Virus record (IMG/VR): IMGVR_UViG_3300036798_000335
Location: 1 to 42,461 of that record
Source of the DNA: a virus
Taxonomy: Duplodnaviria > Caudoviricetes
Strand: one strand, 5' to 3'
DNA: 42,461 nucleotides
Positions 4,090 to 18,220 of the stretch are shown one piece after another. Under the pieces are notes generated by a model, which saw only the letters and a list, made by a program, of their open reading frames with translations, ran no database searches and was not told the origin of the DNA. A program made the translations under genes and the position numbers. The stretch's first letter is position 1; the number at the start of each line of letters is the position of its first letter.

Positions 4090-6192
4090 TCACTTTTGGG
4101 CGAATGGGTGGCGGAAGACCACCCAGCCGTACCTCACATCGCCAGTTTTGAACTCGATCTGGTGGGCTTGGATGTTTTCCTTGGCCCTTGCCCGGTCGAT
4201 GGTTCCCTTGGTAAAACCCAGTTCCTTGAGCGATGACATGAACTCATTCGAGAGCATCTCTTTTCCCGGCGGGAGCATGTCGCGCATGGCCTGGCAGCAC
4301 GTCCCGAGCAGGGTGTCGGGCTGGACCTGCTCGGCGTTGAGCAGCTCGTCGGCGTTCATGTCGACCTCGTCGCCCCACTCCACGTAGGCGCACGGCAGGT
4401 CATCGTGTTTCAACAATCGAAACGACAGGGCCTTGGGCCGAGCGGCGGTGTTCACCTTCACCGGGGCCAACACCCGGATGGCCTCGTTGTCGGGGTGGTA
4501 GCCGATGGTGTGCACGGCGCGGGCCACCCCGGCGATCCCGATGGACCCGTTGCCCTGGTACATGGCCTTACCGGTGCGCTCCTTGCGTAGGTGGCGAAGC
4601 AGGAACACCGTGGTCTTGGTGGCCTGGGCCATCTCCACCAGGGGACGCAGAGCCCGGCGCACCGAGGCGTCCTTGTGGGAGTCCACCTCGCCCCCGAGGT
4701 AGGCAGCCAGGACGTCAATGATCACCATGGAGGCCCTGGTCTCCTCTACCTTCTTCCACAGGGGGGCCACGTCGAGGGGGATGATGAGCGGACTGGTCTC
4801 GTCGGTCTCCTCGCTGATGACCGCGTCGACGTGGATGACCCGACTCAGGTCGGCCTGAGCGGCCTGCAGGCGCCACACGGTGGTGTCGTCCAGGTCATCC
4901 TCGGCCGAGAGGAACAGGACGTAGCTGGAGTCCACTCCGGGCGTTCCGTCGGGCATGTCCCGACCGGTGGTAAGTCGGGCGGCCAGGTCCAGGCTCACCG
5001 TCGACTTGCCGGTGGCCGGGTCCCCCTCGAGGACCACCAACTTGCCCCGGGGCAACCACCCGTGCCACAGCCATTCGGGGTAGGTCCCGTTGACCTCCGA
5101 CACCAGCCGGGTCACTAGACGACTGGTTCCCACCGGCTTGAAGTTGATCTTGTCGATCCTCAGCTTCTTATTGTCACCGGCTTCCTTGAAGCCTCGCTCG
5201 AGGAGGTCGGCACGAGCCGCCTTGAAGTTGCCGTAGTGGTACAGCCAGGTGTAGAGCCCGAAGGAGTCCATGGGCTTGCGCAGCGGGATCCCGGTGGCAG
5301 CGTTGACCGTGTCCGACCACACCGCGCAGTGCCCGTCGTCGCCATACACGGTGGCCGACACCTCGTTGGTGGCCATGGGGTGACGCCAGTGGCTGTCCTT
5401 GGTGCGGGGGTCCTGACGCACGAACACCCAGGACAAGGACTTGAGCACTTCGGTGGCCGGCACCGCCTCGTTGAACCGGCTGCCGGCCAGGTGGCGAGCC
5501 GAGGTGTAGCGCTGTTCCACCTCTTCCGCGGTGGGCAGTGGCTCGAGGTGGTCTTCGATTTCCTCGGCGCCGTAGTCCCGGTTCCAACTGGCCCGGTAGG
5601 TGACCGGCACCCCCCGGTCCAGCTTCCAGTTCAGCGTCCCGGGCAGGCGCATCACCCGGTCGATGTTGGACACGTTGTCGACGTGGATGCCCATATCGGA
5701 GGCGAGGCGCTCCCAGGTGAGCTGCCACTGGGTCAGCAGGGGGATGGCCTCGGCGGCTGACAACGGCTCCTTCAGTCGCCACCAGGGCTGCATCCCGTAG
5801 CCGGATTGCACCACCGCCGAGGGTTGGAGCGGGAACCGTTTGACCAGGTCGACGGCCTGAGTGTGATTGGTAGGTAGGCCAGGCAGACGGTGGGCGGGAC
5901 CGGCGATATCGATGTCCAGCCAGAAGGCCGGGATGGTCTCGCAACTGTTGATCCCGCCCCGTTGGCCGTCCTCGAGCCGGTCGGCTCGAGTGGCCACCCC
6001 GAACCACACGTCACCCTTCTCGCCCAGGCTCTCGATGGTGGGCCCCAGCGCCTTGAGGTTGTCGACCGGCGCCCACTCCACATGGCGCCGGCCGTTGCCC
6101 TTCTCGACGCTGAACAGGTTGACCCAGCCCTCCTCGATCCGCCCGTAGAGCATCTGCAGCCACTCCAGGCTGTGATCGGCATTGACGGGCAC
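4090..6192 (-). CDS. Bifunctional primase (RepB/AEP-like) - RecA/AAA_25-type helicase
   Basis: N-terminal WLDID, SGYGMQPWW and RVMRLPGTLNWK primase motifs. C-terminal Walker A GDPATGKST, LSAEDD and Walker B MVIID. Confidence 0.85.
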   Translation of the reverse strand: MPVNADHSLEWLQMLYGRIEEGWVNLFSVEKGNGRRHVEWAPVDNLKALGPTIESLGEKGDVWFGVATRADRLEDGQRGGINSCETIPAFWLDIDIAGPAHRLPGLPTNHTQAVDLVKRFPLQPSAVVQSGYGMQPWWRLKEPLSAAEAIPLLTQWQLTWERLASDMGIHVDNVSNIDRVMRLPGTLNWKLDRGVPVTYRASWNRDYGAEEIEDHLEPLPTAEEVEQRYTSARHLAGSRFNEAVPATEVLKSLSWVFVRQDPRTKDSHWRHPMATNEVSATVYGDDGHCAVWSDTVNAATGIPLRKPMDSFGLYTWLYHYGNFKAARADLLERGFKEAGDNKKLRIDKINFKPVGTSRLVTRLVSEVNGTYPEWLWHGWLPRGKLVVLEGDPATGKSTVSLDLAARLTTGRDMPDGTPGVDSSYVLFLSAEDDLDDTTVWRLQAAQADLSRVIHVDAVISEETDETSPLIIPLDVAPLWKKVEETRASMVIIDVLAAYLGGEVDSHKDASVRRALRPLVEMAQATKTTVFLLRHLRKERTGKAMYQGNGSIGIAGVARAVHTIGYHPDNEAIRVLAPVKVNTAARPKALSFRLLKHDDLPCAYVEWGDEVDMNADELLNAEQVQPDTLLGTCCQAMRDMLPPGKEMLSNEFMSSLKELGFTKGTIDRARAKENIQAHQIEFKTGDVRYGWVVFRHPFAQK

Positions 6193-6194
6193 GG

Positions 6195-6641
6195 TCAGCT
6201 CTCAAACAGATCGGCTTCGGCCGCGCCAGTGGGTGCAGTCGGAGCAGTGGAAGCCGAGGGGAAGACGTCGCTCTCACCGCGCCCACTGGAATCGTGGATG
6301 ATCCGGTAGATCTTCGTCGGGTTGCCGTAGGCCGAGGGCCGCAGCTCGGTCAACTCGATGTCGAGAGTGTCGCCCTTCTCCGGTTGGTACATCATCATCT
6401 GGCCCTTCAGGTTCTTCGAGCCGGCGATGATCTCAGCGATGGGGTACTGGGCCTGCACCCCGCCCAGGCGGACGGCCACCCCGGTCAGCTTGTACTTGAG
6501 GGCCACCCCGTTGCGACTGGTGAACTTCGAGACGTCGTCGACCTTGCCCTTGGCCCGGTCCCCGATCTTCTCGAACTTGATGGTGGGTGGGTAGTTATCC
6601 TCGTCGGCTTCGCGCAGCTCGGGGTCGTTGTAGATACTCAT
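6195..6641 (-). CDS. Probable ssDNA-binding protein (OB-fold)
   Basis: Lies between the exonuclease and primase. IKFEKIGD..G beta pattern and an acidic/aromatic C-terminal tail (EADLFES). Confidence 0.55.
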   Translation of the reverse strand: MSIYNDPELREADEDNYPPTIKFEKIGDRAKGKVDDVSKFTSRNGVALKYKLTGVAVRLGGVQAQYPIAEIIAGSKNLKGQMMMYQPEKGDTLDIELTELRPSAYGNPTKIYRIIHDSSGRGESDVFPSASTAPTAPTGAAEADLFES

Positions 6642-7828
6642 TGGGCTTCTCCTTCGACAGTGGATCCAGGGAACAGGTGCAGCAGCTGGCCCATGGCCGG
6701 CGGCGGCGGGGGGAACGGGATCTCCCAGTGCTTCTCGACCTCGTTGAGCACGGCCTCGATGGCAGCGATGTCGGCCGCGCTGTGGGTATCGGACCGCTTG
6801 AGCGTGGCCACCCCGGCGGGCCAGGTGGCAGTCAGCTCGGCGCGGGCCCGCTCGTGGCGACCGATCACGTTGACCCGGTTCTGCAGCCACACCCGGTGAG
6901 GGTGATCATCGCTAACCTTCGGAGGTGGTGGCAGCGACTCGGCCAACGCCACCTCGAGCGGGGTGGGCTTGAACGGCTGGGACACCTTGCGGTTGCGCCA
7001 GTCCCTGACCCACATGCTCTTCTTGAAGGCCTCCCACCCGGCCTCCAGGTCGACCACATGCACCTCGAGCTGGGCACCGCCGGCGTCGAGCCAGAAGATC
7101 AATCCCCGCTGCTGATCCACCGCCGGCATCGGGAACCGCTCGTCCTGACTACCGTTGGCTGCCACCCCCTGGCGGTAGATGGCGTCGGCCCGGGAGTAGA
7201 TGGCCATCTGCACTGCGATCTGTTGCCAGTCGAGGTGACCCCCAGTCTTCAGGTCAGCAATGGCAGCCACGGGCCAGTCAGGGGAGTCCACCAGGACCAG
7301 CCGGTCGAACATCCCGGCCACCCGCCATTGATCGAGGACCACGATCAGCTCGACGGCCTCGGGAATCAATGCGATGCCAGCGGCCTCGAGGCCGGCCACG
7401 TAGGCCTGGATGTCGCGCTCGGTCTCCCGGGTCAGGTTCAGCTTGTGGGGTGGCTGCCCCCGATCAATCAAAGCAGTGATGGAATGCAGAGAGCTGCCGA
7501 TGTCACGTCGGTCGTTGGCCCCGCCCACCGCGGAACACTCCTCCACCAACTTCTTGCAGGTCTCCTTACTGCGGTCGTCGTAGTACCAGGGGTTCCCGCC
7601 GGTCTCGGCCATCAGCGCTTCCCACTGGGCCCGCAGCCCGGGGCGGGTCATCACTCCCTGCACCGTCATGCTGGCCTTCCAGGGCGCGATGCCCCAGGCC
7701 GAGCCGAGGGTGCCGGCGATGGTGGTGGCCCGGGAGTAACCGACCGGCTTCTTGCCGTCGGGGGGCACGATCATGTACCGCCCGTAGCTGTCCCGGCGGA
7801 CTACATCATCGGGGGCAACGTCGGTCAC
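6638..7828 (-). CDS. PD-(D/E)XK exonuclease (Cas4/RecB-like, actinophage type)
   Basis: RDSYGRY, YSRATT, GSSLH, AGMFDRL, IADLKTG and QMAIYS motifs. Confidence 0.85.
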   Translation of the reverse strand: MTDVAPDDVVRRDSYGRYMIVPPDGKKPVGYSRATTIAGTLGSAWGIAPWKASMTVQGVMTRPGLRAQWEALMAETGGNPWYYDDRSKETCKKLVEECSAVGGANDRRDIGSSLHSITALIDRGQPPHKLNLTRETERDIQAYVAGLEAAGIALIPEAVELIVVLDQWRVAGMFDRLVLVDSPDWPVAAIADLKTGGHLDWQQIAVQMAIYSRADAIYRQGVAANGSQDERFPMPAVDQQRGLIFWLDAGGAQLEVHVVDLEAGWEAFKKSMWVRDWRNRKVSQPFKPTPLEVALAESLPPPPKVSDDHPHRVWLQNRVNVIGRHERARAELTATWPAGVATLKRSDTHSAADIAAIEAVLNEVEKHWEIPFPPPPPAMGQLLHLFPGSTVEGEAQ

Positions 7829-7956
7829 CGTTCGCCCTCGTAGCCGATCTCGTCCCTGTAGCACTCGCACTCGTCGCAGACGCCCTGCTCGTCACGCTCT
7901 CGTTGCGACATGACCCGGCCGCAGCTGGGACACCGTTCGAAGATCTCGGCGGTCAC
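7825..7956 (-). CDS. Small Zn-finger protein (43 aa; not in the ORF track)
   Basis: MTAEIFERCPSCGR...GVCDECEC with GTGA overlaps at both ends. Confidence 0.6.
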   Translation of the reverse strand: MTAEIFERCPSCGRVMSQRERDEQGVCDECECYRDEIGYEGER

Positions 7957-8141
7957 AACTGGACCCCAAAGGCTTCCACCACCGCTGCGAGGTCCCGGGG
8001 GTCATCACTGAAGAAGGCGATCTGCATCGGGTACGTCGGCTGGGGATACCTCGGGTTCACCTCTTCATAGGTGAACGCGGGAAGGATAAGTAGCTTGGCT
8101 TCTTCGGACGTGCGCGGCTTAACCGTGCGGGATACACGCAT
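7953..8141 (-). CDS. Hypothetical protein
   Basis: GAGGAG RBS; coupled to the downstream gene. Confidence 0.6.
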   Translation of the reverse strand: MRVSRTVKPRTSEEAKLLILPAFTYEEVNPRYPQPTYPMQIAFFSDDPRDLAAVVEAFGVQL

Positions 8142-8185
8142 GGACTGACTCCTCAGATCTGGGAGCCGACCGCCTGTAGGTGCGG

Positions 8186-8282
8186 TCCCGACGACAGGGC
8201 TGCGGGAAGGAGAATCACCACAAAACCCAAACCGCCTCGAGGGTGAACCGGGTGATTCATCTCGAGTGCCCCGTCGTCAGGA
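8186..8282 (-). ncRNA. Candidate trans-acting antisense sRNA (three-way junction with anti-RBS loop)
   Basis: 15-bp closing stem (8186-8200 with 8268-8282) has two G-U pairs only on the minus strand. Two inner hairpins. Loop UUGUGGUGAUUCUCCUU is complementary to the early-gene RBS motif. Confidence 0.65.
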
Positions 8283-8295
8283 CGGCGGCAACCTA

Positions 8296-8643
8296 TCAGC
8301 TGTCAGCTGGATGCACTAATCGTGCGTACAGGGGAGCGAAGATCTTGAGCGGCAGGGTGACATACCACTCACCCGCGTCACCTCGCCTGAACCTCTTGTG
8401 CACAACGACGAAGAACGGGACCCCCTTCCTGGCTGCCTGCTTGGTTGTCTGGTCGACCCATCCCGCCAGGTCAGTGGCGTGCACCGTCTTCACCTGCACG
8501 CACAGGTCTTCGATGCCGTCGATGTCCCCGGTGTCCTGGTTGCCCTGCAGGGCAGCGCGGTGGCAGCCCGGGAACCAGGTCTTGAGGAAGGTGACGACCG
8601 CCGTCTCCCCCTCGGTGCCGATCTGCTTGGGCCGGCGCTTCAC
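8296..8643 (-). CDS. Holliday junction resolvase (Hjc-like PD-(D/E)XK)
   Basis: KQIGTEGETAVV, GNQDTGDI, CVQVK and VVVHKR...WYV motifs. Confidence 0.8.
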   Translation of the reverse strand: MKRRPKQIGTEGETAVVTFLKTWFPGCHRAALQGNQDTGDIDGIEDLCVQVKTVHATDLAGWVDQTTKQAARKGVPFFVVVHKRFRRGDAGEWYVTLPLKIFAPLYARLVHPADS

Positions 8644-8945
8644 TGCGCCACGCGGCGTCGAGGCAGAGGGGCTTCCAGGTGGATGGTCGCGTCCCGGGAC
8701 CGACGCCGAGCTGCCGCCGTCCGGGGGAGAGTGGTGGGCCTGGTCTCCTGGGCCTCGAGCCACTCCTGGACAGCTGAACGCCGGTAACGAACCTGGCGAG
8801 AGCTGATGGTGACGAACGGGGGCCCCGTGGCCGACCGCCGGCTACGCCACTCCCGCAGGGTGGTCACGGGCACTTGGAGCCACTCACTGACTTCCTGCGT
8901 CGTGAGTAGAGCACCCAAAACCTCTGGTTTCTTACTGCGAGACAC
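8640..8945 (-). CDS. Excisionase / AlpA-MerR-like HTH_17 protein
   Basis: LLTTQEVSEWLQVPVTTLREWR...GPPF...VRYRRSAVQEWL. Divergent from the integrase. AGGAGG RBS. Confidence 0.8.
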   Translation of the reverse strand: MSRSKKPEVLGALLTTQEVSEWLQVPVTTLREWRSRRSATGPPFVTISSRQVRYRRSAVQEWLEAQETRPTTLPRTAAARRRSRDATIHLEAPLPRRRVAQ

Positions 8946-8982
8946 TCTCACCCCTCCTAGCTGTCTCGCGCCGTGGTAGGCC

Positions 8983-9011
8983 ACGCTACGCTTCGCATCT
9001 GGGCCTGTAAA
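8983..9011 (-). promoter_or_regulatory. Sigma70/SigA-like promoter for the xis-replication operon
   Basis: Minus strand TTTACA-N17-TAGCGT upstream of xis. Confidence 0.5.
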
Positions 9012-9131
9012 GGGGGAAGGGGCCTTGCTTTTTTGGGGGGCATCAGAACCTCACCACCTCACGCTTAGTGGACCCCAGTCCCAGCTGGTACGGTGTTCAT
9101 TTGTGTTCAGTAATAAGGAGGAATCACCAAG

Positions 9132-10304
9132 ATGGAAACATCAGCCCTGCTCCCAGGGGTAACGCAGGTCGACGAGACCACCTACCGGGCCAGACCCTAC
9201 GGATCCAGAGGCGAGCGTCTGTGTCGGACGTTCCGGACGGCCGAAGAGGCCAACCAGTTCACCCTTTTGACAAGGGGGCTTGTCTCTCTGGGGCTGGCGG
9301 CTGAGGCCAACCCGGTGAGAGCCCGGCTGGACGCGACCTGGCAGGAGTGGCGTGCGAGCCGGGACAAACTCAACCTCTCGTCGGCTCGCTACCGCAGCTA
9401 TGACAACACCTATAACGCTTGGATCGAGCCCACCTTTAGCCGCTGCCGGTTGGACCAGATTGATGCACAAATGGTCGACGACTGGATTGACGCAATGAAT
9501 GGCAGTCACCTCGAGGCCAGTTCGGTTCGGAATAACGTCCAGGTATTCCGTCAGTTCCTGACGTGGGCGGTCGGGCGAAAGAAGTTCAATCCGGCCGAGC
9601 TGGTCGCCATCAAAAGCCTCGAGCTGCCCGAGGTGATCGAGTCCCCGTACATCCCACTGACGGTGGAGGAGGTGGAGGCCTGGACCGCGGCCATGCGGCC
9701 CCCCGAAGCCATCGCCATCGTGCTCGGTCGCTTCACCGGGATGCGCCCCTCGGAGGTCCGAGGCCTGTGCGTGGAGCGCACCGACTTCCTACGCCGGCAG
9801 CTCCACGTCCACTGGCAGCATGACCACAATCCGACGTTGGGCCACCACCTCCGCCCGGTCAAGGTCAAGACCAAGGCGGGTACTCGCACCTTGCCCATTC
9901 AGGAGTCCCTCCTGGAGGCTCTCAGCGCCCATCTGAGCCGCTTCCCGGGTCAGTACCGCAAGACCATCCACGTCGACCGTAGAGACCGTCAGACGGCGCA
10001 GAACGTCCGCTTCATCATGGGCCCGATCACCGGGTCAACCTTCGGCTTTCGAGCGGCTGCGGTAGCCGAGCGCATCGGCCTCAACGCCCTGCGGGCTAAG
10101 CGGGTAACTCTGCACGATCTACGCCACCACTTCGCCACCGAGGCCTTGGCCCACCACGCCTCCATCCCCGAGGTGGCCGAGGCGTTGGGCGACACCATCG
10201 AGACCGTGGCCAACACCTACGCCCACGCCAAAGCCCGCCCTGGTGAGCCCTGGCAGGACCGGGTAGCCCGGGAGCAGGGTGAGGCGCGGGTAAATCATGG
10301 GTAA
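9132..10304 (+). CDS. int: Tyrosine integrase
   Basis: TGMRPSEVRGL (Arg), HDLRH (HxxR), LGD...NTYAH (Tyr) and a SAM-like middle domain. AAGGAGG RBS. Confidence 0.92.
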   Translation: METSALLPGVTQVDETTYRARPYGSRGERLCRTFRTAEEANQFTLLTRGLVSLGLAAEANPVRARLDATWQEWRASRDKLNLSSARYRSYDNTYNAWIEPTFSRCRLDQIDAQMVDDWIDAMNGSHLEASSVRNNVQVFRQFLTWAVGRKKFNPAELVAIKSLELPEVIESPYIPLTVEEVEAWTAAMRPPEAIAIVLGRFTGMRPSEVRGLCVERTDFLRRQLHVHWQHDHNPTLGHHLRPVKVKTKAGTRTLPIQESLLEALSAHLSRFPGQYRKTIHVDRRDRQTAQNVRFIMGPITGSTFGFRAAAVAERIGLNALRAKRVTLHDLRHHFATEALAHHASIPEVAEALGDTIETVANTYAHAKARPGEPWQDRVAREQGEARVNHG

Positions 10305-10505
10305 AAAGGTGTTCACTAGTGGCCATACTCCCTGGTCACAGCGTTATGCCAAAAGTTCACCGAGAACTTTTGTATCCCGCTGGGGGCAAGCCTCCTACCA
10401 GGGGAAACGTGGACTGACCAGCACGTATGTTCGTCTACGTCGAAGGTGGACGCCGTGGATCTAAGGGGGTCGAAGGGTGAGACGTGGGTAAATCCATGGG
10501 TAAAT
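10288..10505. other. Candidate attP region
   Basis: Paired GGGTAAA arm-type repeats (10288-10305, 10485-10505) flank the inverted repeat AAAAGTTC-N5-GAACTTTT (10351-10371) and the tRNA-3'-like ATCCCGCTGGGGGCA (10374-10388). Lies just downstream of int. Confidence 0.6.
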
Positions 10506-10605
10506 GGGCGATGAGCTGGGCCACCCGCCGGATGACGGATTCGTCGGGCGGGTCGAGGCCTTCGATCAGCCTCCCGCCCCAGTAGCGAACCTCGTCAGCG
10601 GTCAC
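10435..10605 (-). CDS. Hypothetical protein
   Basis: GGAGG upstream of GTG 10605. The 3' part overlaps the attP arm repeats. Confidence 0.35.
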   Translation of the reverse strand: MTADEVRYWGGRLIEGLDPPDESVIRRVAQLIAHLPMDLPTSHPSTPLDPRRPPST

Positions 10606-10774
10606 GGACTCGGTCCTCCACGATGGCGTCCTCCCACTGGTAGCCCAGGGCCCAGCCCTCGCACAGCTCATCACCGCAGTCGCAGGGCTGCGCGTACCGG
10701 CCCCACTGGTGCAGGATGGCCACCGTCACCCTCGAGCGGCGGGCGTAGGCAGCCTCGAACTCGTCAGCGGTCAT
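10595..10774 (-). CDS. Small Cys-containing hypothetical protein
   Basis: MTADEFEAAYA...PCDCGDELCEGW; GGAG RBS. Confidence 0.6.
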   Translation of the reverse strand: MTADEFEAAYARRSRVTVAILHQWGRYAQPCDCGDELCEGWALGYQWEDAIVEDRVRDR

Positions 10775-11348
10775 CCGGGTCTCCCGGTGGGGGCCACTCG
10801 TCCGCACCGGGCACCTCCTTGGTCAGAGAGGGGTGGTCGTCCCGGGCTCGAGCCTGTCGTCGGCGCCGTCGGTTGATCAGCAGCTGACCCACCCCGGTAC
10901 CGAACGCCACCCCGCCCACGAAGGCCGGCAGGATGCCCCACCACCGGGTTAGGGCGACCACGGTGGCAGCCACGGCCCACAGCAGTCCGCCGGCCAGCAC
11001 CAGCCACCAGGGCAGCGCAGGATGGAAGAGGAAGGCGTTGTTGTACCGGGTGAGCAACCGTCGCTGCTCGGCCACCATGCGCTGGTGACCCAGGATGGCT
11101 TCGGCCTCGATGGCGTAGCGCTGCTGGTTCTGATCGAAGACCCCGCCGAACACCATGGTCTCGAAAATGATAGGCGTGTGCACACCGAACGCGAAGGAGT
11201 GGTCTAGGCCCAGCCACACGGTGGATACCCACACTCGTTTACCGACCTGGGTGGACCTGATCCGCTTGTAATGGTCGTTCTGCAGTAGAGCCCATTCCAT
11301 TATTTCGATGGGTTCACCCTGACGGTCGTAATAGAACCACTCAGTCAT
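10764..11348 (-). CDS. Conserved phage domain (VSTVWLGLDH...FETMVF) with C-terminal TM helices
   Basis: Recognisable phage motif plus two hydrophobic segments. Confidence 0.65.
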   Translation of the reverse strand: MTEWFYYDRQGEPIEIMEWALLQNDHYKRIRSTQVGKRVWVSTVWLGLDHSFAFGVHTPIIFETMVFGGVFDQNQQRYAIEAEAILGHQRMVAEQRRLLTRYNNAFLFHPALPWWLVLAGGLLWAVAATVVALTRWWGILPAFVGGVAFGTGVGQLLINRRRRRQARARDDHPSLTKEVPGADEWPPPGDPDDR

Positions 11349-11349
11349 T

Positions 11350-12204
11350 TCACTCAGGGATGGGGAACTCTTCGCGAACGGATCCCCCGTATTTCCACAT
11401 GACCTGAACCATGTCTTCTCCGGCCCGCCACAGGTTCCAGGTCTTGGCCACTAGAGCGGCCTCGCGCCAGTCGGGCATATGGCCAACCCGGCCGCTACGG
11501 CGCGAGTTGAGCAGTTGATTGCGAGCCGACAACCGAGGATCGCCGGCCTTCAGGCTCCCCGTTCGCATGCCATCCCAGAACTCTCTGGCGTCCCCGGCGT
11601 TGAGGAGCACGGTGCGGCGGTAGATGCAGGCCCCACAGGACGGGCGTAGAGGCACGACCTTCATGAAGCGCTGCACCCATACCACCGCCTCCCGGTAGGT
11701 GTCGGCATCGCCGGCATCGAACAGATCCAGCATCTGGGAGATGGTGATGCGGTCCCGGCTGCGGTCAAAGGTCACTTGGCGCTCGGGGTCGGCTTCGGTG
11801 CGGCGTAGACGTAGCTCCCAGCGTAGACAGCCGGCCAGGGCGGTGACGTTGATCTCCCCTCGCAGCTTGAGGGCGTCGGCCATCTGGCGGGTCAGGCCGG
11901 TGTCCATGATGTTCTGGGCCGCGGTGGGCAGGTGGCGCAGCACCACCAGGGGCAGCGTCTGTTCCGAGATCACGATGGCGGTCAGGCGGTGCTGGCCGTT
12001 GAGGAGGTGCCCGTCCTGGTCGAAGGTGATGGCGTCGTTGCTCAGTCGCCACTCGCCCCGGTTGATGATGCCGATCCAGTAGATGACCCGGTCCTCCCGC
12101 AGTCGGCGGTTGTGGAGTTGCGTGCCCAGGTACTTATCGGCTATGGCCGGGGTGACGTTCTCGATGCGAACACTGGGCTTGGGGGTGGGCTTGGTGGTGG
12201 TCAT
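11350..12204 (-). CDS. ParB/Srx-like N-terminal domain protein
   Basis: VTPAIADKYL..HNRRL...DAITFDQDGHLLNGQHRLTA motif. GAGGAGG RBS. Confidence 0.75.
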   Translation of the reverse strand: MTTTKPTPKPSVRIENVTPAIADKYLGTQLHNRRLREDRVIYWIGIINRGEWRLSNDAITFDQDGHLLNGQHRLTAIVISEQTLPLVVLRHLPTAAQNIMDTGLTRQMADALKLRGEINVTALAGCLRWELRLRRTEADPERQVTFDRSRDRITISQMLDLFDAGDADTYREAVVWVQRFMKVVPLRPSCGACIYRRTVLLNAGDAREFWDGMRTGSLKAGDPRLSARNQLLNSRRSGRVGHMPDWREAALVAKTWNLWRAGEDMVQVMWKYGGSVREEFPIPE

Positions 12205-12527
12205 GCCACTTCCTCCTCGAAACTGCCGATAGCGTGGGCTTTGGTCAGTCGTGACCGGATTCGTTCGTACATGGCGGCTCGCAGCTCATCCCGGGTGGGC
12301 GTCTCGTCCCGGGCCATGTGGTAGCCCTCGATGTAGACATAACGACGGGAGTTGACGCGACCCAGCCGATCAATGATGTCGTGTCGTTCCGACGTGCAGC
12401 GGGTGCACTGCAGGGACAGTCGCCAGCCGTACAGGGGTGTCCCCATGTCGTCGGGATAGAACTGGTCCCAGGCGTGGCCCAAGGTACGGCACATCTCCAT
12501 GTCAGCAGCTACGGCGCTCTTCGGCAT
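12201..12527 (-). CDS. Actinophage-type Zn-binding hypothetical protein
   Basis: CRTLGHAW...CTRC...R.Y.Y..GY. GGAGG RBS. Confidence 0.65.
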   Translation of the reverse strand: MPKSAVAADMEMCRTLGHAWDQFYPDDMGTPLYGWRLSLQCTRCTSERHDIIDRLGRVNSRRYVYIEGYHMARDETPTRDELRAAMYERIRSRLTKAHAIGSFEEEVA

Positions 12528-12699
12528 CCTCTCACCCTCCCCGTGGTCAAAAAACCGCCCCCCGCCTAGGAAAACAAGGGGCCTTCACTCCTATTCCTGT
12601 GCTAGCACCTCCATGGGAGATCGAAGTGCAACGCTGTGTGTCAGTGTGGCACGAAGAGTAGTACCACCGAGGAGGCACTGGGGGAATAGGAGAACCAGC

Positions 12700-12906
12700 G
12701 TGGCTGACGCACTTGTCAAGCGTCTAGTGGGACTCGACCATGAGGTAAGCGCCACCCAGGCCTACTTAACCGTGGTCACCAACGAACGGCGACGGATCAT
12801 GTCCATGCTCTACAGCGAGATGGGCTTCAGCAAGGCCCAGCTGGCCCGCGAGACTGGTAAGTCGGTGCAGCGCATCAGCCAGATCTTGAACGGTACCGCC
12901 CACTAG
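12700..12906 (+). CDS. HTH DNA-binding protein (repressor/Cro-like candidate)
   Basis: AGGAG RBS then GTG. GFSKAQLARETGKSVQRISQIL is an HTH. Divergent from the 12527 operon. Confidence 0.7.
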   Translation: MADALVKRLVGLDHEVSATQAYLTVVTNERRRIMSMLYSEMGFSKAQLARETGKSVQRISQILNGTAH

Positions 12907-12929
12907 AAAGGGGAGTCCATTTCCCAGAT

Positions 12930-13148
12930 GTAGGCGCCGGGTCACTGTCCCGGTAGTGACCCGGGTGAGCTGGATCCCCAGCCCGGCTCCCCGGGTCCGC
13001 CTACCAGGTCGAGCCTCGCCGCGCCGAGCGTCTTCAGTGGTCCAATCAGCCATGCGAGGAGCGGCGGGGCTCGTCAGATCGCTGGTCCCGGGTGGAGAGG
13101 TCCAGATGGCCTCGCTGCCTGCGCCGTAGCACCACCCGGGACCAGCGA
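12930..13148 (+). ncRNA. Candidate multi-domain structured RNA
   Basis: Four-way junction at 12930-13004. 12-bp stem 13011-13022/13061-13072 with a G-U on the + strand. Perfect 17-bp stem 13079-13095/13132-13148 enclosing two hairpins. Intergenic. Confidence 0.55.
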
Positions 13149-13194
13149 CAACCCCGTCAGACATTTGGTAAGACATTTTCAAATAGGGGGACGT

Positions 13195-13509
13195 ATGCAG
13201 GGTGCCAGCCGGATCGATGAGCTGACCTACCGGACGGTGTTCATGACCGCCATCGAGGAGGACCGCTGTGCCGAGGTGGCCCAGGCGTTCTGGGATCACC
13301 GGGGGGTGGCCCTGGCCGACGGGCGGCTCGAGGTGGAGGCCCCGCCGGCTCGCACCCTGCAGGGCTACCCGGTGTGCGACTGGTCGGACCAGGAGGTCCC
13401 GCCCGGCTCGATGGTGTCACCCATGCGGGCCCACTGTCCGGTCTGCGAGGTGCCCCGGTACGTCAAGATGGACGGGCGGTTCGGACGTCATCCGATCCGG
13501 GTGAGGTGA
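13195..13509 (+). CDS. Hypothetical protein with Cys/His Zn motif
   Basis: AGGGGG RBS; C...CPVC...GRFGRH. Confidence 0.6.
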   Translation: MQGASRIDELTYRTVFMTAIEEDRCAEVAQAFWDHRGVALADGRLEVEAPPARTLQGYPVCDWSDQEVPPGSMVSPMRAHCPVCEVPRYVKMDGRFGRHPIRVR

Positions 13510-13936
13510 TGGAGGATGGAACGACTGTGGTTCCGCTTTCGGATGTGGCTGGCGGATCTGATTCAGGGGAAGCGGTATGGCTGAGATCCTCCCCTCCCAG
13601 GGGCGTGGGAGGGTGGTAAGCGGGGAAGTCCAGGGGAAGACCAACCGTGGCAGGTTCGCCCCCCTGGGCCTCCCCGTCGAGCTGGACGTCCTGTTGGACT
13701 TGGCCCGCCCGCCGCTGCCGGCGTCGAGCTTCTCGGGGGGTGTGGTTGGTGACAGGCCGACCGCGGCCGCGCCGGTTGGGCAGCCACCGCACGATGGTGG
13801 ACCGCTTCCAGTACGGCGCTCGGGCGATGCGCCCGTCGGGCGGGGGGAGCGCCCGACGGGCCACCAGGTTGGTGACGGCATTGGGGTGGACGCCTAGTAG
13901 GTCGGCCACCTCTTGACGGGACAGGTAGTCAGGCAT
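13463..13936 (-). CDS. AlpA/MerR-like HTH protein
   Basis: YLSRQEVADLLGVHPNAV...LPPPDGRIARAPYWKRSTIVRW. AAGGA RBS. The C-terminal extension is uncertain. Confidence 0.7.
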   Translation of the reverse strand: MPDYLSRQEVADLLGVHPNAVTNLVARRALPPPDGRIARAPYWKRSTIVRWLPNRRGRGRPVTNHTPREARRRQRRAGQVQQDVQLDGEAQGGEPATVGLPLDFPAYHPPTPLGGEDLSHTASPESDPPATSESGTTVVPSSITSPGSDDVRTARPS

Positions 13937-14144
13937 GGTCGTCGTCCTTCTCTACTCGGATCAGATACCACCCCGAGGGCGTTGTGATCCCGAACATGGC
14001 GAGGTAGTTGCCCGCATCATCGACCAGCGCCTGTACTTGAAAAAAGCTCCCCTCAGCCTGGGCCCGCATCGCGAGCCCGATCAATGAGCCGACCAGGAGC
14101 GCGTGGTCGGCATCGAGGGGTAGCGCCGCGTCTCGATCAGGCAT
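13929..14144 (-). CDS. Hypothetical protein
   Basis: GGAG RBS before ATG 14144; overlaps its neighbours in operon fashion. Confidence 0.55.
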   Translation of the reverse strand: MPDRDAALPLDADHALLVGSLIGLAMRAQAEGSFFQVQALVDDAGNYLAMFGITTPSGWYLIRVEKDDDHA

Positions 14145-14349
14145 CGTCGGCTCCAGAACTGTCGTTCTGTACTGGTCGCACAATCAGCTTGTGACCCGTG
14201 CGGCGCCCGTAGGCGGTACGGGTGCGAAGCAACCACCCTTTGAACGCTGGGTCCGTTACGGGTCCACGTTCGGTGCAGTAGACCTCTCCAGTCTCAGCAT
14301 CGACAATCTCGACCCGCTCAGATTCGGCGTTCTGCGTGGGCTCAGCCAT
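14137..14349 (-). CDS. Hypothetical protein (..TQNAES...QNDSSG.. end-motif family)
   Basis: AAGGAG RBS. Shares end motifs with the 1958-2903 ORFs. Confidence 0.6.
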   Translation of the reverse strand: MAEPTQNAESERVEIVDAETGEVYCTERGPVTDPAFKGWLLRTRTAYGRRTGHKLIVRPVQNDSSGADDA

Positions 14350-14488
14350 TGACCGACTCCTTGCCGCGCCCCCGGTGAGCCAGGAAGATGACCAGCCAGA
14401 CCACCAGCCCCACCCCGACCAGGGGTAGAGCGGTGGCAGCCGGGATGCCGGTGTTGGCCCAGAGCAGGAACAGAATGATGATGTTCAT
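14342..14488 (-). CDS. Small membrane protein (48 aa; not in the ORF track)
   Basis: AAAGGAGAATCATCAC-ATG start motif; MNIIILFLLW...LPLVGVGLVVWLVIFLA. Confidence 0.65.
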   Translation of the reverse strand: MNIIILFLLWANTGIPAATALPLVGVGLVVWLVIFLAHRGRGKESVNG

Positions 14489-14673
14489 GTGATGATTCTC
14501 CTTTCGGTGGGCACCGTGTCGGTGCCGCGTTTCAAATGGTCGTGTCGATTGGTGTGAGCCGTGATCTTCCCGGTCACGTAGGGGCGGATGTAGATGACTC
14601 TCTCGGCCCGCCCGTCGCCGGGGCAGACGATCACGTCGCCCCGGCGCAGGTCCTTCCAGCGGACGTCTTCCAC
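14485..14673 (-). CDS. Small hypothetical protein (SH3/KOW-like pattern)
   Basis: DLRRGDVIV pattern; stop/start overlaps. Confidence 0.5.
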   Translation of the reverse strand: MEDVRWKDLRRGDVIVCPGDGRAERVIYIRPYVTGKITAHTNRHDHLKRGTDTVPTERRIIT

Positions 14674-14954
14674 TAGCGGGGGTGCTGGTCGATGTAGTCA
14701 GCCAGCCGCCTCAGCTGATCGGCCTGGCTCCCACGTCCTTCAGGTCCCGGCCCGATGATGAGATCCAGCAGGTCAGCGTGGATCACGCTGACGGGTGGGC
14801 CATCTAGGTCGCAGTTACGGGCGTGGTCGAATGAGTAGCTGTAGCAGTCGGACCAGTCGACTTCGATGGTCAGGTGGCCGCTCTCCTCACCGTTAATCCA
14901 GACCAGGGGCTGGAACAGTGAACTGATGCCGGTCTCGCGGCTCATCAGATCCAC
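14673..14954 (-). CDS. Hypothetical protein
   Basis: Operon-coupled ORF; start codon uncertain. Confidence 0.5.
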   Translation of the reverse strand: MDLMSRETGISSLFQPLVWINGEESGHLTIEVDWSDCYSYSFDHARNCDLDGPPVSVIHADLLDLIIGPGPEGRGSQADQLRRLADYIDQHPR

Positions 14955-15154
14955 CCATTCTGTTCTTCGAGGACGTCGACCAGCTCCAGGGCCAGGGCGG
15001 CCACCCGGTAGGGGCGGTCCTCGACGTCAGCGGCGTTGCGGATCTCCCCGCACAACCGCAGCACTTCAGCGGTCATGTCGAGGTGGCGCTGGACCGCTTC
15101 GCTCTCGCCATCGATGTAGGCCTGGCGGGCGGCGGATGAAACAGGTTGGTACAT
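14945..15154 (-). CDS. Hypothetical early protein
   Basis: AAAGGAGAAAACCACC-ATG start motif. Confidence 0.65.
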   Translation of the reverse strand: MYQPVSSAARQAYIDGESEAVQRHLDMTAEVLRLCGEIRNAADVEDRPYRVAALALELVDVLEEQNGWI

Positions 15155-15178
15155 GGTGGTTTTCTCCTTTGGTTGATT

Positions 15179-15235
15179 GGTGCTGAGTGCACCGGAAACC
15201 CCTTAGCAGCGTAAAGGGGAATCCGCTGATCTCAG
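15179..15235 (-). promoter_or_regulatory. Conserved intergenic hairpin H1
   Basis: CTGAG-ATCAG-CGGA-TT-CCCCTT..AAGGGG-TT-TCCG-GTGCA-CTCAG-CACC; nearly identical to H2. Confidence 0.75.
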
Positions 15236-15414
15236 TAGTGGCGTAGCTGCTCACCTCGTTGCAACCGGCGCAGCTCATAGCCTCGCAGCTTCCTACACTT
15301 CATCCACAGTCGGCGCTGCTCACCGTGGTCAGTGCAGTAGACGAATCCGTGATCGTCGATATGAGTGACCGGCTTATCGCAGGTCTCTTCCATGTCGCAG
15401 CGTAGGTCAGCCAC
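15232..15414 (-). CDS. Small Cys/His-rich hypothetical protein
   Basis: CDM..TC...HID..GFVYC..H. The stop codon lies in the base of H1. Confidence 0.55.
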   Translation of the reverse strand: MADLRCDMEETCDKPVTHIDDHGFVYCTDHGEQRRLWMKCRKLRGYELRRLQRGEQLRHY

Positions 15415-15982
15415 GCCACGCCACCCAAGCGATGGCCTGGCACTGGGCCGGGGCGATCCCGAAGTAATCGGCCACGCTGGTGTACACATCGACGATGTGC
15501 TCATAGGCGCCTTTGCGGTCCAGCACCTTCCGGGTGGTGTCATCGCCCTTGAATCCGAGGGCAGCGTCAATGGCGTGGCGGTCGATACAGACCGTGTCAG
15601 CCAAAGGGCTGACAATGCAAGCGTAGAATGAGCGGACCTTGGCTCCGCTGAGCACGTCGCCGGGATGCTCACCGGCCGCGATGCGCAGTGCCTTGCGTTT
15701 ATTGCTGAGCAGTACCGGCGCATCACCGGTCCGAAAGATCCGGTGCGCGTACTCCAGATTCAAACGCCAGGCCAACCGGGGGGACAGGGCGGCGATGACA
15801 CCAGCCGCACACTCGACGGTTACCGAGTACTGCTCAGCCATGCTCACGGCGGCGGAGTGAGCGGAAGCGTACCAGTAGGTACCTTCCTGCCAGGCCGAGT
15901 CATCAGCCGATTCCAGCAGGCTGATCAATCGGCCGACCATTTCGTCGCGGTCGAGTACGACCGTGACCTCTATGGCAGTCAT
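15407..15982 (-). CDS. Conserved phage protein with HhH-GPD/glycosylase-like pattern (DUF7178-like)
   Basis: WY..AH, AAGVIAALSP..W..N, KVRSFY, VCIDRHA and QAIAW motifs. Strong RBS motif. Confidence 0.65.
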   Translation of the reverse strand: MTAIEVTVVLDRDEMVGRLISLLESADDSAWQEGTYWYASAHSAAVSMAEQYSVTVECAAGVIAALSPRLAWRLNLEYAHRIFRTGDAPVLLSNKRKALRIAAGEHPGDVLSGAKVRSFYACIVSPLADTVCIDRHAIDAALGFKGDDTTRKVLDRKGAYEHIVDVYTSVADYFGIAPAQCQAIAWVAWRG

Positions 15983-16016
15983 GTGGTGATTCTCCTTGTG
16001 TGGTGATTGCTTAATG

Positions 16017-16073
16017 GGTGCTGAGTGCACCGGAAACCCCCTTAGCGAGTAAGGGGGAATCCGCTGACCTCAG
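16017..16073 (-). promoter_or_regulatory. Conserved intergenic hairpin H2
   Basis: Near-copy of H1 (about 57 bp). The stop of the ArdC-like gene lies in its base. Confidence 0.75.
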
Positions 16074-16987
16074 CTGTCTTCGTCAGTCTCAAACGTGGTC
16101 CCGACCACCCGGTCAACGGCTTTTTGCGCTTGGGCGGCGGCCTTGATGACCAGACCGGCGTCACCGCGGAGCACGTCCAACCAGTGGGCGATGTAGCCCG
16201 CACTGGACGGAATGACCGCGGCCTGATTGATGCCAGCCAGCCCGCAGAGCATGGCCGCACCCATTTCCGCGACCAGCTCCTCAAAGCTATAGACGGGGGA
16301 GCCGAACCCTCCGAACGTTCCCTCCGCGATCCCCTGTCGGGCGAGACGGGATGTGTGTCCGGTGGAGTGAGTGATTTCGTGATAGAGGGTTGAGTAGTAA
16401 TGCTCAGCGCTGACGAAGTCGTCACGCTGAGGCAAGCAGATGGCGTCGCGGGGCGGCGCGTAGTAAGCGCGGTCGCCACCGTGGCTGAGCGATGGGCCGG
16501 ACGTCAGGTAGTCATTGACCAGGTCAGCCGCGGCCGCGATGGCCTCCACTTCGGTCCGCTCAGCCGCCGGGGCGGGCAAGCGGGCATCGGTGGACCAGTC
16601 GCACTGGTCGACGTTGAACACATGGTAGAGACGCAGTAGCGGAATGGTGCGAACGGTTGGCTTACCGTTGACGATTTCGCCGTCTTTCTTCAGTAGCTTC
16701 CAAAAGACGATCTGAGCGGACTTCTCGCCCTTGCGGACCTGTCCGCCCCGTTCCTGGATCTGACGGTACGTCCCCCAATGGCTGGACGTGTAGCCGCGTG
16801 AAGCGCCTTCCAGCATGAGCAGGAAGACGTTCACGCCCCGGTACGGTCGCCCGGTTGATAGGGACATCGGCAGCCCGTAGCTGGATGCACTCCACGGTTG
16901 ATGCCACGGGACGGTGCCGGATTCGAGTGCTTCCAGAATCGACTTGGTGGTTTCGGCCGCGGCGTCGCGTACGGTCTTTGTAGGCAT
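16070..16987 (-). CDS. ardC: ArdC-family antirestriction protein (ssDNA-binding domain plus MPTase metallopeptidase domain)
   Basis: VPWHQPW, TGRPYRGVN, WGTYRQ..GGQVRKGEK, VFNVDQ, YYSTLYHEITHSTGH and YSFEELVAEMGA motifs. Confidence 0.9.
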   Translation of the reverse strand: MPTKTVRDAAAETTKSILEALESGTVPWHQPWSASSYGLPMSLSTGRPYRGVNVFLLMLEGASRGYTSSHWGTYRQIQERGGQVRKGEKSAQIVFWKLLKKDGEIVNGKPTVRTIPLLRLYHVFNVDQCDWSTDARLPAPAAERTEVEAIAAAADLVNDYLTSGPSLSHGGDRAYYAPPRDAICLPQRDDFVSAEHYYSTLYHEITHSTGHTSRLARQGIAEGTFGGFGSPVYSFEELVAEMGAAMLCGLAGINQAAVIPSSAGYIAHWLDVLRGDAGLVIKAAAQAQKAVDRVVGTTFETDEDS

Positions 16988-17005
16988 GGTGATTTCTCCT
17001 TTGGT

Positions 17006-17066
17006 CCTAGCTGAGAACTAGGCGGACAGGCTGAGACTGGTTCAGCCCTACCGTCTATCGCTCAGC
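17006..17066 (-). promoter_or_regulatory. Intergenic hairpin H3
   Basis: GCTGAG...CTCAGC closing stem with inner stems, and the alternative hairpin CCTAG..CTAGG before the RBS. Confidence 0.65.
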
Positions 17067-17298
17067 GACGGGTGATGTTCACTCCGTTGCACATGACCGC
17101 TTCGCCCACGTTCAACGCATCGAACATGGTCCGGAAGCGATCCATGGTGCCTTCACCCATAGCCAGCGCATCCCACTTGCAGAGCGCGGCCACGTAGGTC
17201 CACCAAGCGACGTCGGGATGAGCGGTCACCCGTTGCACCTTGCTAGGACGATCAAAGCGGTTAACCGTGATTTCGTAGCGGTTGGCGTGAATATCCAT
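17062..17298 (-). CDS. Hypothetical early protein (first gene of the early operon)
   Basis: AAAGGAGAATCACCACA-ATG start motif. Confidence 0.65.
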   Translation of the reverse strand: MDIHANRYEITVNRFDRPSKVQRVTAHPDVAWWTYVAALCKWDALAMGEGTMDRFRTMFDALNVGEAVMCNGVNITRR

Positions 17299-17322
17299 TG
17301 TGGTGATTCTCCTTTGATTGAT

Positions 17323-17387
17323 TGGTGCCCGATGGCACCACGAAAGACACCAGGTCGCGTACCTGGTGTCCAACGTGCTGATATCGG
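17323..17387 (-). promoter_or_regulatory. Conserved intergenic hairpin H4 (covariant of H1/H2)
   Basis: CCGAT-ATCAG-CACG-TTG-GACACCAGGT..ACCTGGTGTC-TTT-CGTG-GTGCC-ATCGG-GCACC. Confidence 0.75.
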
Positions 17388-17574
17388 AGAGAAAACAATC
17401 ACTTTGCTTTCTTTGCTTGGTTGGCTAGCTGTCTTTCATCTAGCACGATGGGCCGCTCGGATCGTCCGAGCCTGGGTCCACCTTGATCGCGGCATTCTCA
17501 GCCTTAGTCAGCCGGGCTATGTGTGGCGCTCGTAGCGACCTGCCTGACTGCGTTCATCCGTTGTTGCTGACCAC

Positions 17575-17603
17575 ACAATACGGTAGGGCTGACAGGTAAG
17601 CAA
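17575..17603 (-). promoter_or_regulatory. SigA-like early promoter
   Basis: Minus strand TTGCTT-N17-TATTGT pointing into the early operon. Confidence 0.55.
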
Positions 17604-17878
17604 GTCATCTAGCCAGATTTCTTTGAGAAACACACATATTGGCTGGTCACGACGTATGGTTAGCAGTGCTCACTAAGCCCCTAGTCGACCGAGCTGGGCC
17701 CACACTGCCCGCTACCTACCGGCTGGTTACCGACCAGTAACGGGTAGTTCGATCATCGAACCATCGTCCAGCGTGCGAGATCACGCGCCGCGGTCACCTC
17801 ACCCTGCTGACACCACTACCATACGGCATTCTTGAAGACTATTTCATGACATTTCTACCATCCACATCATACGTGGAG

Positions 17879-18167
17879 TGCGGATAACTGTAGTTATCGG
17901 TAATGCGATGCGTGAGGATGTCCGCAATGTCCGCAAGATCCGCAAATGTCCACTTGACCGGGGCATGTGCCGGGCGCCTCAGAGGAAATAAGTACTTAGC
18001 CAGGCGGGAAAATCGTCGCAACGGCCCGCCTGCGGAAGTTCGGGGAGAGCGAGTTGTGCCATTTTGTTCTCGATGCGGAGGTGGTTTGGGTCAAAATCGC
18101 CTCTACCAGGGAGTTTATAAAAGGGGTACCCAGGTCCGCACTCCCCAAGGGTATAGAGAGATGCGGA
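17879..18167. repeat. TCCGCA/TGCGGA repeat cluster upstream of the terminase
   Basis: Copies at 17879, 17921, 17930, 17939, 18031, 18074, 18135 and 18162. Confidence 0.6.
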
Positions 18168-18220
18168 ACTGGTCCCCCCTCTTGACAGGGTCTAGATAAA
18201 AAGGTGCAGTCACCCTCGAG

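Follow-up and report, generated by a model that had tools for sequence, protein, structure and literature searches.

A candidate phage antisense RNA with a loop complementary to start tags of early genes and the integrase

Does the folded gap behind the RusA-like resolvase gene of this phage encode an RNA and, if it does, which messages would that RNA meet? The window, by which we mean the whole 42,461-base stretch of DNA analysed here, is a virus record that is 93% complete and has a G+C content of 65%. It encodes terminase, portal, capsid, endolysin, primase-polymerase, exonuclease, RusA, an excisionase-like HTH protein, a tyrosine integrase and ArdC. The host is likely actinobacterial, because the nearest cultivated capsid proteins are those of Streptomyces phages (40-43% identity). 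A DNA search of window positions 6000-12000 against cultivated phages gave no match, and a RusA scan of species genomes found no prophage relatives. An element-pattern scan of the same kind of genomes returned 88 loci, none of them with phage relatives or with a -10 box plus a long stem.

Early genes are laid out leftward from about 17600, the integrase rightward from 9132, and the xis, RusA and replication genes leftward from 8984. The element itself lies between RusA on one side and a 62-aa gene on the other. The genes and sites that matter for its setting are the following.

8296..8646, minus strand: RusA-like resolvase gene, the neighbour upstream of the element (PHROG 244; alignment)
8640..8984, minus strand: excisionase-like HTH gene, with a promoter-like site in front of it at 8983-9011
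9132-10304, plus strand: tyrosine integrase gene, with a start tag directly before it at 9115..9129
12700-12906, plus strand: small HTH_3 gene, a repressor candidate, opposite in direction to its neighbours and with an RBS that is only partly tag-like
17575..17603, minus strand: promoter-like site TTGCTT-17-TATTGT before the early operon, present in the relative G002 too

The minus strand of positions 8186-8282 folds with a minimum free energy of -50.9 kcal/mol (z -4.85), a value that none of 200 shuffles equalled. The plus strand folds too (-43.4, z -3.92), but with broken pairs. A first-pass annotation of this DNA had described a three-way junction on the minus strand, and we recovered every part of it: a 15-bp closing stem, a hairpin at 8236-8266 and a GCGG/CCGC stem. 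The two G-U pairs of the closing stem, at stem pairs 4 and 11, are usable on the minus strand only, as had also been noted. Because such pairs can be read only on the strand that carries the antisense loop, that strand is favoured. The 26-nt loop is unpaired in the centroid structure, and its 14-nt seed has a mean unpaired probability of 0.62. The whole window gave two weak unrelated matches to Rfam 15 at E <= 1, none of them near 8186. The parts of the element are these.

8185..8283, minus strand: predicted small RNA of about 99 nt, its 5' end paired to its 3' end, with a predicted start at G8283 (fold; kept in 8 distinct phages; start taken from the spacing of the -10 box)
8268..8283, minus strand: closing stem, 5' arm (fold; stem conservation)
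8185..8200, minus strand: closing stem, 3' arm (fold; stem conservation)
8236..8266, minus strand: side hairpin (fold); L016 has a different one and the other relatives have none
8206..8231, minus strand: seed-bearing loop closed by GCGG/CCGC, with the seed, complementary to the start tag, at 8207-8223
8290..8298, minus strand: extended -10-like box TGn-TAGGTT, the predicted promoter of the element, directly after or overlapping the RusA stop

The loop at 8207-8223 had been said to match translation-start regions elsewhere in the genome, and a match search reproduced all of the sites.

17298..17314, minus strand: start tag of the first early gene (78 aa, no family), 17/17
16987..17001, minus strand: start tag of ardC (16070-16987; ArdcN + MPTase-PolyVal), with one bulge
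15982..15997, minus strand: start tag of the DUF7178 gene (15407-15982), 16/16, with a second partial tag at 15999-16008
15154..15169, minus strand: partial start tag of a 69-aa early gene
14488..14503, minus strand: start tag of a 48-aa hydrophobic early gene, 16 nt with one G-U (one C-to-T change)
9115..9129, plus strand: start tag of the tyrosine integrase, with one bulge; the corresponding site is matched by the loop in 8 of 8 phages

The 14-mer of the motif, allowing up to 2 mismatches, occurs 4 times in the window against 0.25 expected, and 0 of 100 shuffles reached 4. We then compared the loop with all candidate start windows, defined as every ATG or GTG that opens an ORF of at least 40 aa. 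By duplex energy alone the six sites rank 1, 2, 3, 5, 7 and 8 of 1323 start windows; with target accessibility included they rank 1, 2, 4, 5, 6 and 7 of 1322, and rank 3 in that ordering is the opposite strand of the element itself. The tag is asymmetric and always stands in mRNA sense at starts. Its single reversed copy, at 8207-8223, has no start, and the earlier remark that no start codon lies behind the sense motif at 8207 extends to the copy in every relative. AATCACC falls within 3 nt of a start at 4 of 7 sites in the window and at 8 of 12 sites in G002, and at none of these window and G002 sites does it mark a structural gene. A de novo count of 10-mers recovered the tag in G001 and G002, and did not place it among the top 10-mers for the window or for G004.

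Two further features of the early region were seen. Just before each tagged early start on the minus strand there is a long interrupted hairpin (15169-15235, 16007-16073, 17005-17065 and 17315-17401), two of which are 84% identical; these hairpins look like processing sites or terminators. The untranslated leader of the early operon (window 17400-17575, minus strand; L199:4240-4440, minus strand) is kept between the window and G002, even though the first genes differ. This leader folds stably, has no Rfam match and is a candidate for a second structured RNA.

Relatives were found by RusA, ParB-like, primase and capsid searches, and the element is present in seven further distinct phages (G001, L016, G002, L025, L026, L028 and L029), which with the window makes eight. 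Some of these carry a second name: G001 is L001, with L027 as a near-copy, L016 is L024, and G002, a complete genome, is L023. In all eight the element adjoins RusA, and it is present at 7 of the 7 metagenome loci whose RusA identity is at least 51%. The outer 11 bp of the closing stem form standard pairs in 88 of 88 cells across the eight copies, with 3 of the 11 pairs altered on both sides and 2 altered on one side to G-U. The strand carrying the antisense loop is the better-folding one in 7 of 8 copies.

The inside of the stem is less constant, running from 65 to 97 nt. The three-way junction is not a defining trait and is confined to the window and L016; the other relatives form one long interrupted hairpin. 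Mean unpaired probability of the seed is 0.57-0.63 in four copies, 0.48 in one and 0.37 in three (G001, L028 and L029, where the seed is mostly paired), and the apex is open in all.

A covariance search with a model built from the eight copies (R1), run on 100 sources totalling 917 kb and including 72 of 73 distant RusA loci, scored above 29 bits only for the eight training copies and L027. Ten further records picked by capsid protein, 4 of them at least 90% complete, held no element match in a search that carried no positive control of its own. The exact 17-mer occurs in viral contigs at 5 single-copy loci, none with the element or with relatives of the 21 window proteins tested. The stem pattern matched three times in viral contigs, and two of these matches are real; the one in L021 was dropped, as it lies inside an unrelated ORF that we take to be WhiB-like from its cysteine pattern.

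Relatives that keep the tag and lack the loop had been named as evidence that would count against pairing. Among the phage's own relatives we found none: G004 (capsid 79%), which has head genes but not the early module in common with the window, lacks both tag and element, as do L018, L019 and L020. G004 has a different repeated start motif with a small inverted repeat before its early genes (G004:C1:6465-6485 and 7395-7411; L297).

If the loop recognizes the tag by base pairing, the two should change together. AATCACC-type tags occur with GGUGA-type loops in the window, G002, L025 and L016, and AACCACC-type tags occur with GGUGGUU loops in G001, L026, L028 and L029. The co-variation proposed at the outset is therefore what the relatives show, the change of the tag from AATCACC to AACCACC being mirrored in the loop. 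Each of the 8 phages has a loop complementary to the sequence leading up to its integrase start; the longest Watson-Crick runs measure 9, 14, 13, 7, 9, 10, 11 and 10 nt, and the L016 loop reaches no more than 7 nt against its own integrase. The integrase was identified by similarity for 7 of the 8 genes, the L029 contig holding only 5 codons, and the integrases of the relatives are 25-45% identical in all pairs but one (69%). The summed run of own pairs is 83 against a permutation mean of 64.5, and a fraction of 0.005 of permutations reaches 83, a figure that overstates independence because, on the weakly supported RusA tree (53/69), a single change suffices to account for the tag switch. Within a class, a loop fits the integrase sites of the other phages as well as its own site or better.

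The early regions are readable in 3 of the 8 genomes. Of the 1609 start windows of G002, the 12 that rank highest are without exception tagged starts; they belong to 10 genes, and most of the tagged genes there are not homologous to the early genes of the window. When duplex energy is the sole criterion, the tagged starts of G001 are not among the best 16 of 1396; they take ranks 1, 2, 3 and 7 of 1395 only after accessibility was added, the seed was shortened from 19 to 15 nt and the start region scanned was widened. In the window, G002 and L025 the duplex spans the Shine-Dalgarno (SD) sequence and the spacer up to the start codon. Three phages (G001, L028 and L029) have lost the anti-SD part from the loop and have the integrase site some 10-20 nt upstream of the SD; both points speak against a generic anti-SD match.

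How would such an RNA be made? The first proposal was cleavage of the xis-replication transcript. All 8 copies, however, have a TAnnnT box, its middle variable, at a distance of 7-9 nt ahead of the stem, and none of the 8 has one at the opposite end; such a placement is expected at 0.3% of window positions by chance. The TA of the box is part of the RusA stop codon in three copies, the box comes directly after the stop in the window, and it is independent of the stop in the other four. The box in the window resembles the one before the integrase, at 9086-9094. In L016 (contig sequence, L016:6516-6640) the element, both flanks and the box are inverted relative to RusA, and the break points fall outside the stem, so that in this phage the RNA would not be cut from the RusA transcript. 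Since the box is found in all eight copies and is inverted together with the element in L016, a promoter of its own is more likely, on comparative grounds, than cutting from the xis-RusA transcript, and the latter is not supported as a general origin.

The transcript would start near G8283, which pairs with C8185, and as no terminator is present at the 3' end (8185) that end would arise by trimming back to the stem. Neither a -35 box for the RNA nor a terminator conserved among the copies was found. A scan of window 7500-19000 for consensus promoters found 0, and the promoter calls therefore rest on comparison.

The same antisense RNA could instead be processed from the xis-RusA-replication transcript, appearing in lytic growth only and acting as a lysis-commitment or early-to-middle switch. 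This is the alternative that survives best, and we consider it unlikely. It draws on the antisense strand being the RusA-transcribed strand in 7 of 8 copies, on a stem that in the window can continue through imperfect pairs beyond 8186-8282, as might be the case for a nuclease substrate, and on the analogous hairpin of mycobacteriophage Adephagia, which sits at a late transcription start. Against it, read-through of the inverted L016 copy would yield the wrong strand, and the -10-like box keeps its distance in every copy. In the window's phage, its own promoter and processing could both be operating.

Our preferred reading, to which we give a probability of about 0.62, is that the element specifies a trans-acting antisense RNA of 70-100 nt, likely transcribed from a -10 promoter belonging to the element; with its loop directed at the start tags, this RNA would block translation of the integrase and the early genes as a group. 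Sequence comparison gives unusually good support for a real and conserved phage antisense RNA that is probably functional. The core of the first-pass annotation is supported, namely a structured RNA with a loop directed at a tag common to early genes and the integrase; a general origin in the xis transcript, kinship with C4 RNA and the three-way junction as a defining trait are not.

We envisage the following course of events. Host RNA polymerase would start at about G8283. The paired ends would shield the RNA, and its 3' end would be trimmed to the stem, the window copy having no U-tract terminator. Pairing would begin at the exposed UGGU-type apex and extend across the SD and spacer or, in three relatives, 10-20 nt upstream of the SD instead, and the duplex would block ribosome entry. 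The absence of the RNA when the DNA enters the cell would permit a short burst of anti-defence genes and integrase; the RNA would then build up and end this early burst, and so act as a timer. In a lysogen it would silence leaky early messages and the integrase, so that the HTH repressor candidate at 12700-12906 would be backed by a second lock. We suggest this double role because the phage needs the integrase and the anti-defence genes immediately on entry, and they are undesirable late in lytic growth as well as in a stable lysogen.

The window tag recalls the start-associated sequences (SAS) of actinobacteriophages. In cluster K mycobacteriophages, as the available text of PMC3203893 describes them, these are asymmetric tags that mark non-structural genes at the RBS; one single copy is reversed and not linked to a start. 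The accessible parts of two papers from 2024-2025 call their function undefined (PMC11373665, PMC12699233), and cluster EF Microbacterium phages have start-associated sequences too, with a consensus of their own, according to the portion available of PMC7302621, where the role of such sequences is likewise called undefined. Like SAS and ESAS, the window tag is asymmetric, positioned at the RBS, found at non-structural genes and conserved beyond the SD, with one reversed copy. It differs in sequence from both the cluster K and the EF consensus as given in the accessible text of the reports (PMC3203893, PMC7302621). The window also belongs to a different phage group and has 6 sites with the integrase among them, whereas SAS phages have 11-19 sites.

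Adephagia (JF704105) has 16 SAS copies in forward orientation and one reversed. A long hairpin that forms on the transcribed strand in the gap between genes 92 and 93 (L200:33650-33715) carries the reversed copy in its loop, and late transcription begins at this hairpin according to the available part of PMC11373665. A reversed copy in a hairpin loop is found in Adephagia, Peanam and LilPharaoh (L200, L201, L206). Across 7 aligned cluster K phages the hairpin stem is preserved through compensatory changes, and the loop is complementary in 3 of the 7; the other 4 have 17-20 tags without a complementary loop. AnnaSerena also has tags without such a loop, its reversed copies being at chance level only. 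No reversed SAS was found in the last 6.8 kb of TM4, and the end of the Kratio genome has one reversed copy with 3 mismatches. Extending the antisense-loop layout to all SAS thus held only in part, and we regard the analogy as partial.

Start tags can evidently persist for other reasons, because 4 of the 7 aligned cluster K phages keep them without the loop. The same observation keeps alive a second alternative, in which the tag is a protein-binding site, as a DNA operator or for an RNA-binding translational regulator, with the reversed copy serving as an extra operator or as an opposite-strand decoy. Protein binding is what the authors proposed for such tags in the accessible text of PMC3203893 and PMC11373665, and several HTH proteins are encoded in the window. 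We nevertheless hold this alternative to be quite unlikely here. The tag keeps one polarity, that of the mRNA, at every start; the reversed copy always sits within a co-varying stem-loop behind a -10-like box; and the G-U pairs and the box, which is missing from the opposite end throughout, favour the antisense strand.

Could the RNA pair with the tags and yet raise or stabilize expression, by opening leaders or by protecting processed 5' ends? Pairing could change the handling of the long interrupted hairpins that precede the early genes, and three relatives have their integrase site upstream of the SD. The target sites are already open, however, with an opening cost of 2.7-7.0 kcal/mol at the six window sites, and in the window, G002 and L025 the duplex would cover the sequence that a ribosome binds, so activation seems very improbable. 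A chance match, or an inverted remnant of a lost gene's ribosome-binding site in a terminator-like hairpin, might be expected where hairpins are frequent after stop codons and AC-rich spacers are frequent in GC-rich phages, but this is largely refuted and scarcely tenable given the match count that no shuffle reached, the conservation in eight phages with compensatory changes, a loop that follows the tag switch and a sense motif with no start codon behind it in any of the copies.

Known phage regulators offer several points of comparison for the preferred antisense RNA. C4 RNA of P1/P7 matures by the action of RNase P, the CI RNA of satellite phage P4 is an RNA-based control of immunity or of the lysis-lysogeny decision that works via transcription termination, and RegB of T4, a nuclease protein, shuts off early messages as a group through their SD. 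C4 (Rfam RF01695) had been put forward as the analogue of the element. According to the available text of PMC8198154 it is a structured RNA with trans activity on the phage that encodes it, and because ant is not fully repressed without it, lysogeny requires it; it also appears as an antisense RNA in a family listing (PMC2864571). The likeness lies in a phage-encoded structured RNA acting in trans on its own phage, which for the element is a prediction. Kinship is not borne out, as the element has no Rfam match. No antirepressor family was found among the 71 ORFs scanned in the window, and the element does not lie in a c4-icd-ant operon. C4 has one target operon, icd-ant, in which it is itself encoded, whereas the element has 4-10 predicted targets that are unrelated genes on both strands, joined by one start tag and including the integrase.

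SviR, from the Vibrio cholerae satellite PLE, is a mobile-element sRNA with several targets that covers the RBS and lowers translation, as the accessible part of the preprint reports (bioRxiv 10.1101/2022.04.08.487710). It uses two seeds and acts across two genomes, and that part describes neither a common co-varying start tag nor an integrase target. The element would work like C4 and SviR and is a member of neither group. Sar of P22 and OOP of lambda are RNA-based controls of immunity or of the lysis-lysogeny choice in the available portion of PMC12197685, where each is cis-antisense to a single message, unlike the trans targets predicted here. A literature search, made largely without subscription papers or supplementary site lists, found no description of the element or of an antisense partner of start tags.

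Most described phage antisense RNAs control one message. Here one RNA appears to address a set of swappable early genes and the integrase via a common tag, and the joint alteration of seed and tag across phages is the comparative signature of real pairing. Should this hold, prophage stability and the control of when anti-defence genes are expressed would gain an RNA-only layer. A wider reading, which we offer tentatively and regard as possible rather than likely, is that of a master switch made of one RNA. Unrelated early anti-defence genes and the integrase would be enrolled through a private start tag and silenced by a self-contained, invertible cassette of promoter plus hairpin. This would serve as a protein-free timer and as an RNA layer of prophage maintenance and superinfection immunity, with its specificity rewritten by matched changes in seed and tag. 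Actinobacteriophage SAS, which have been unexplained since 2011, would be accounted for by the same logic, at least in part, and the reversed SAS in the hairpin loop of Adephagia makes the question of an RNA that targets start tags addressable in a cultivable system.

Some smaller observations concern the surroundings of the element. A short frame ending DWxxxGWL-stop follows it in 5 of 8 copies (L023:10440-10508, L025:3470-3543, L001:8340-8424, L028 and L029) and is missing from the window, L016 and L026. The early genes of G001 have promoter-like cassettes of their own, TTGACC/TTGCCT-17-TACATT (L001:1100-1190 and 2010-2080), in place of the hairpins of the window. GTGTTCA repeats lie on both sides of the integrase (window 9093-9109 and 10309-10315) and also before the L016 integrase, and are possibly arm-type sites. 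Elsewhere in the window, a 33-nt direct repeat (1958-1990 and 2506-2538, 97% identical) is found at the ends of two small genes.
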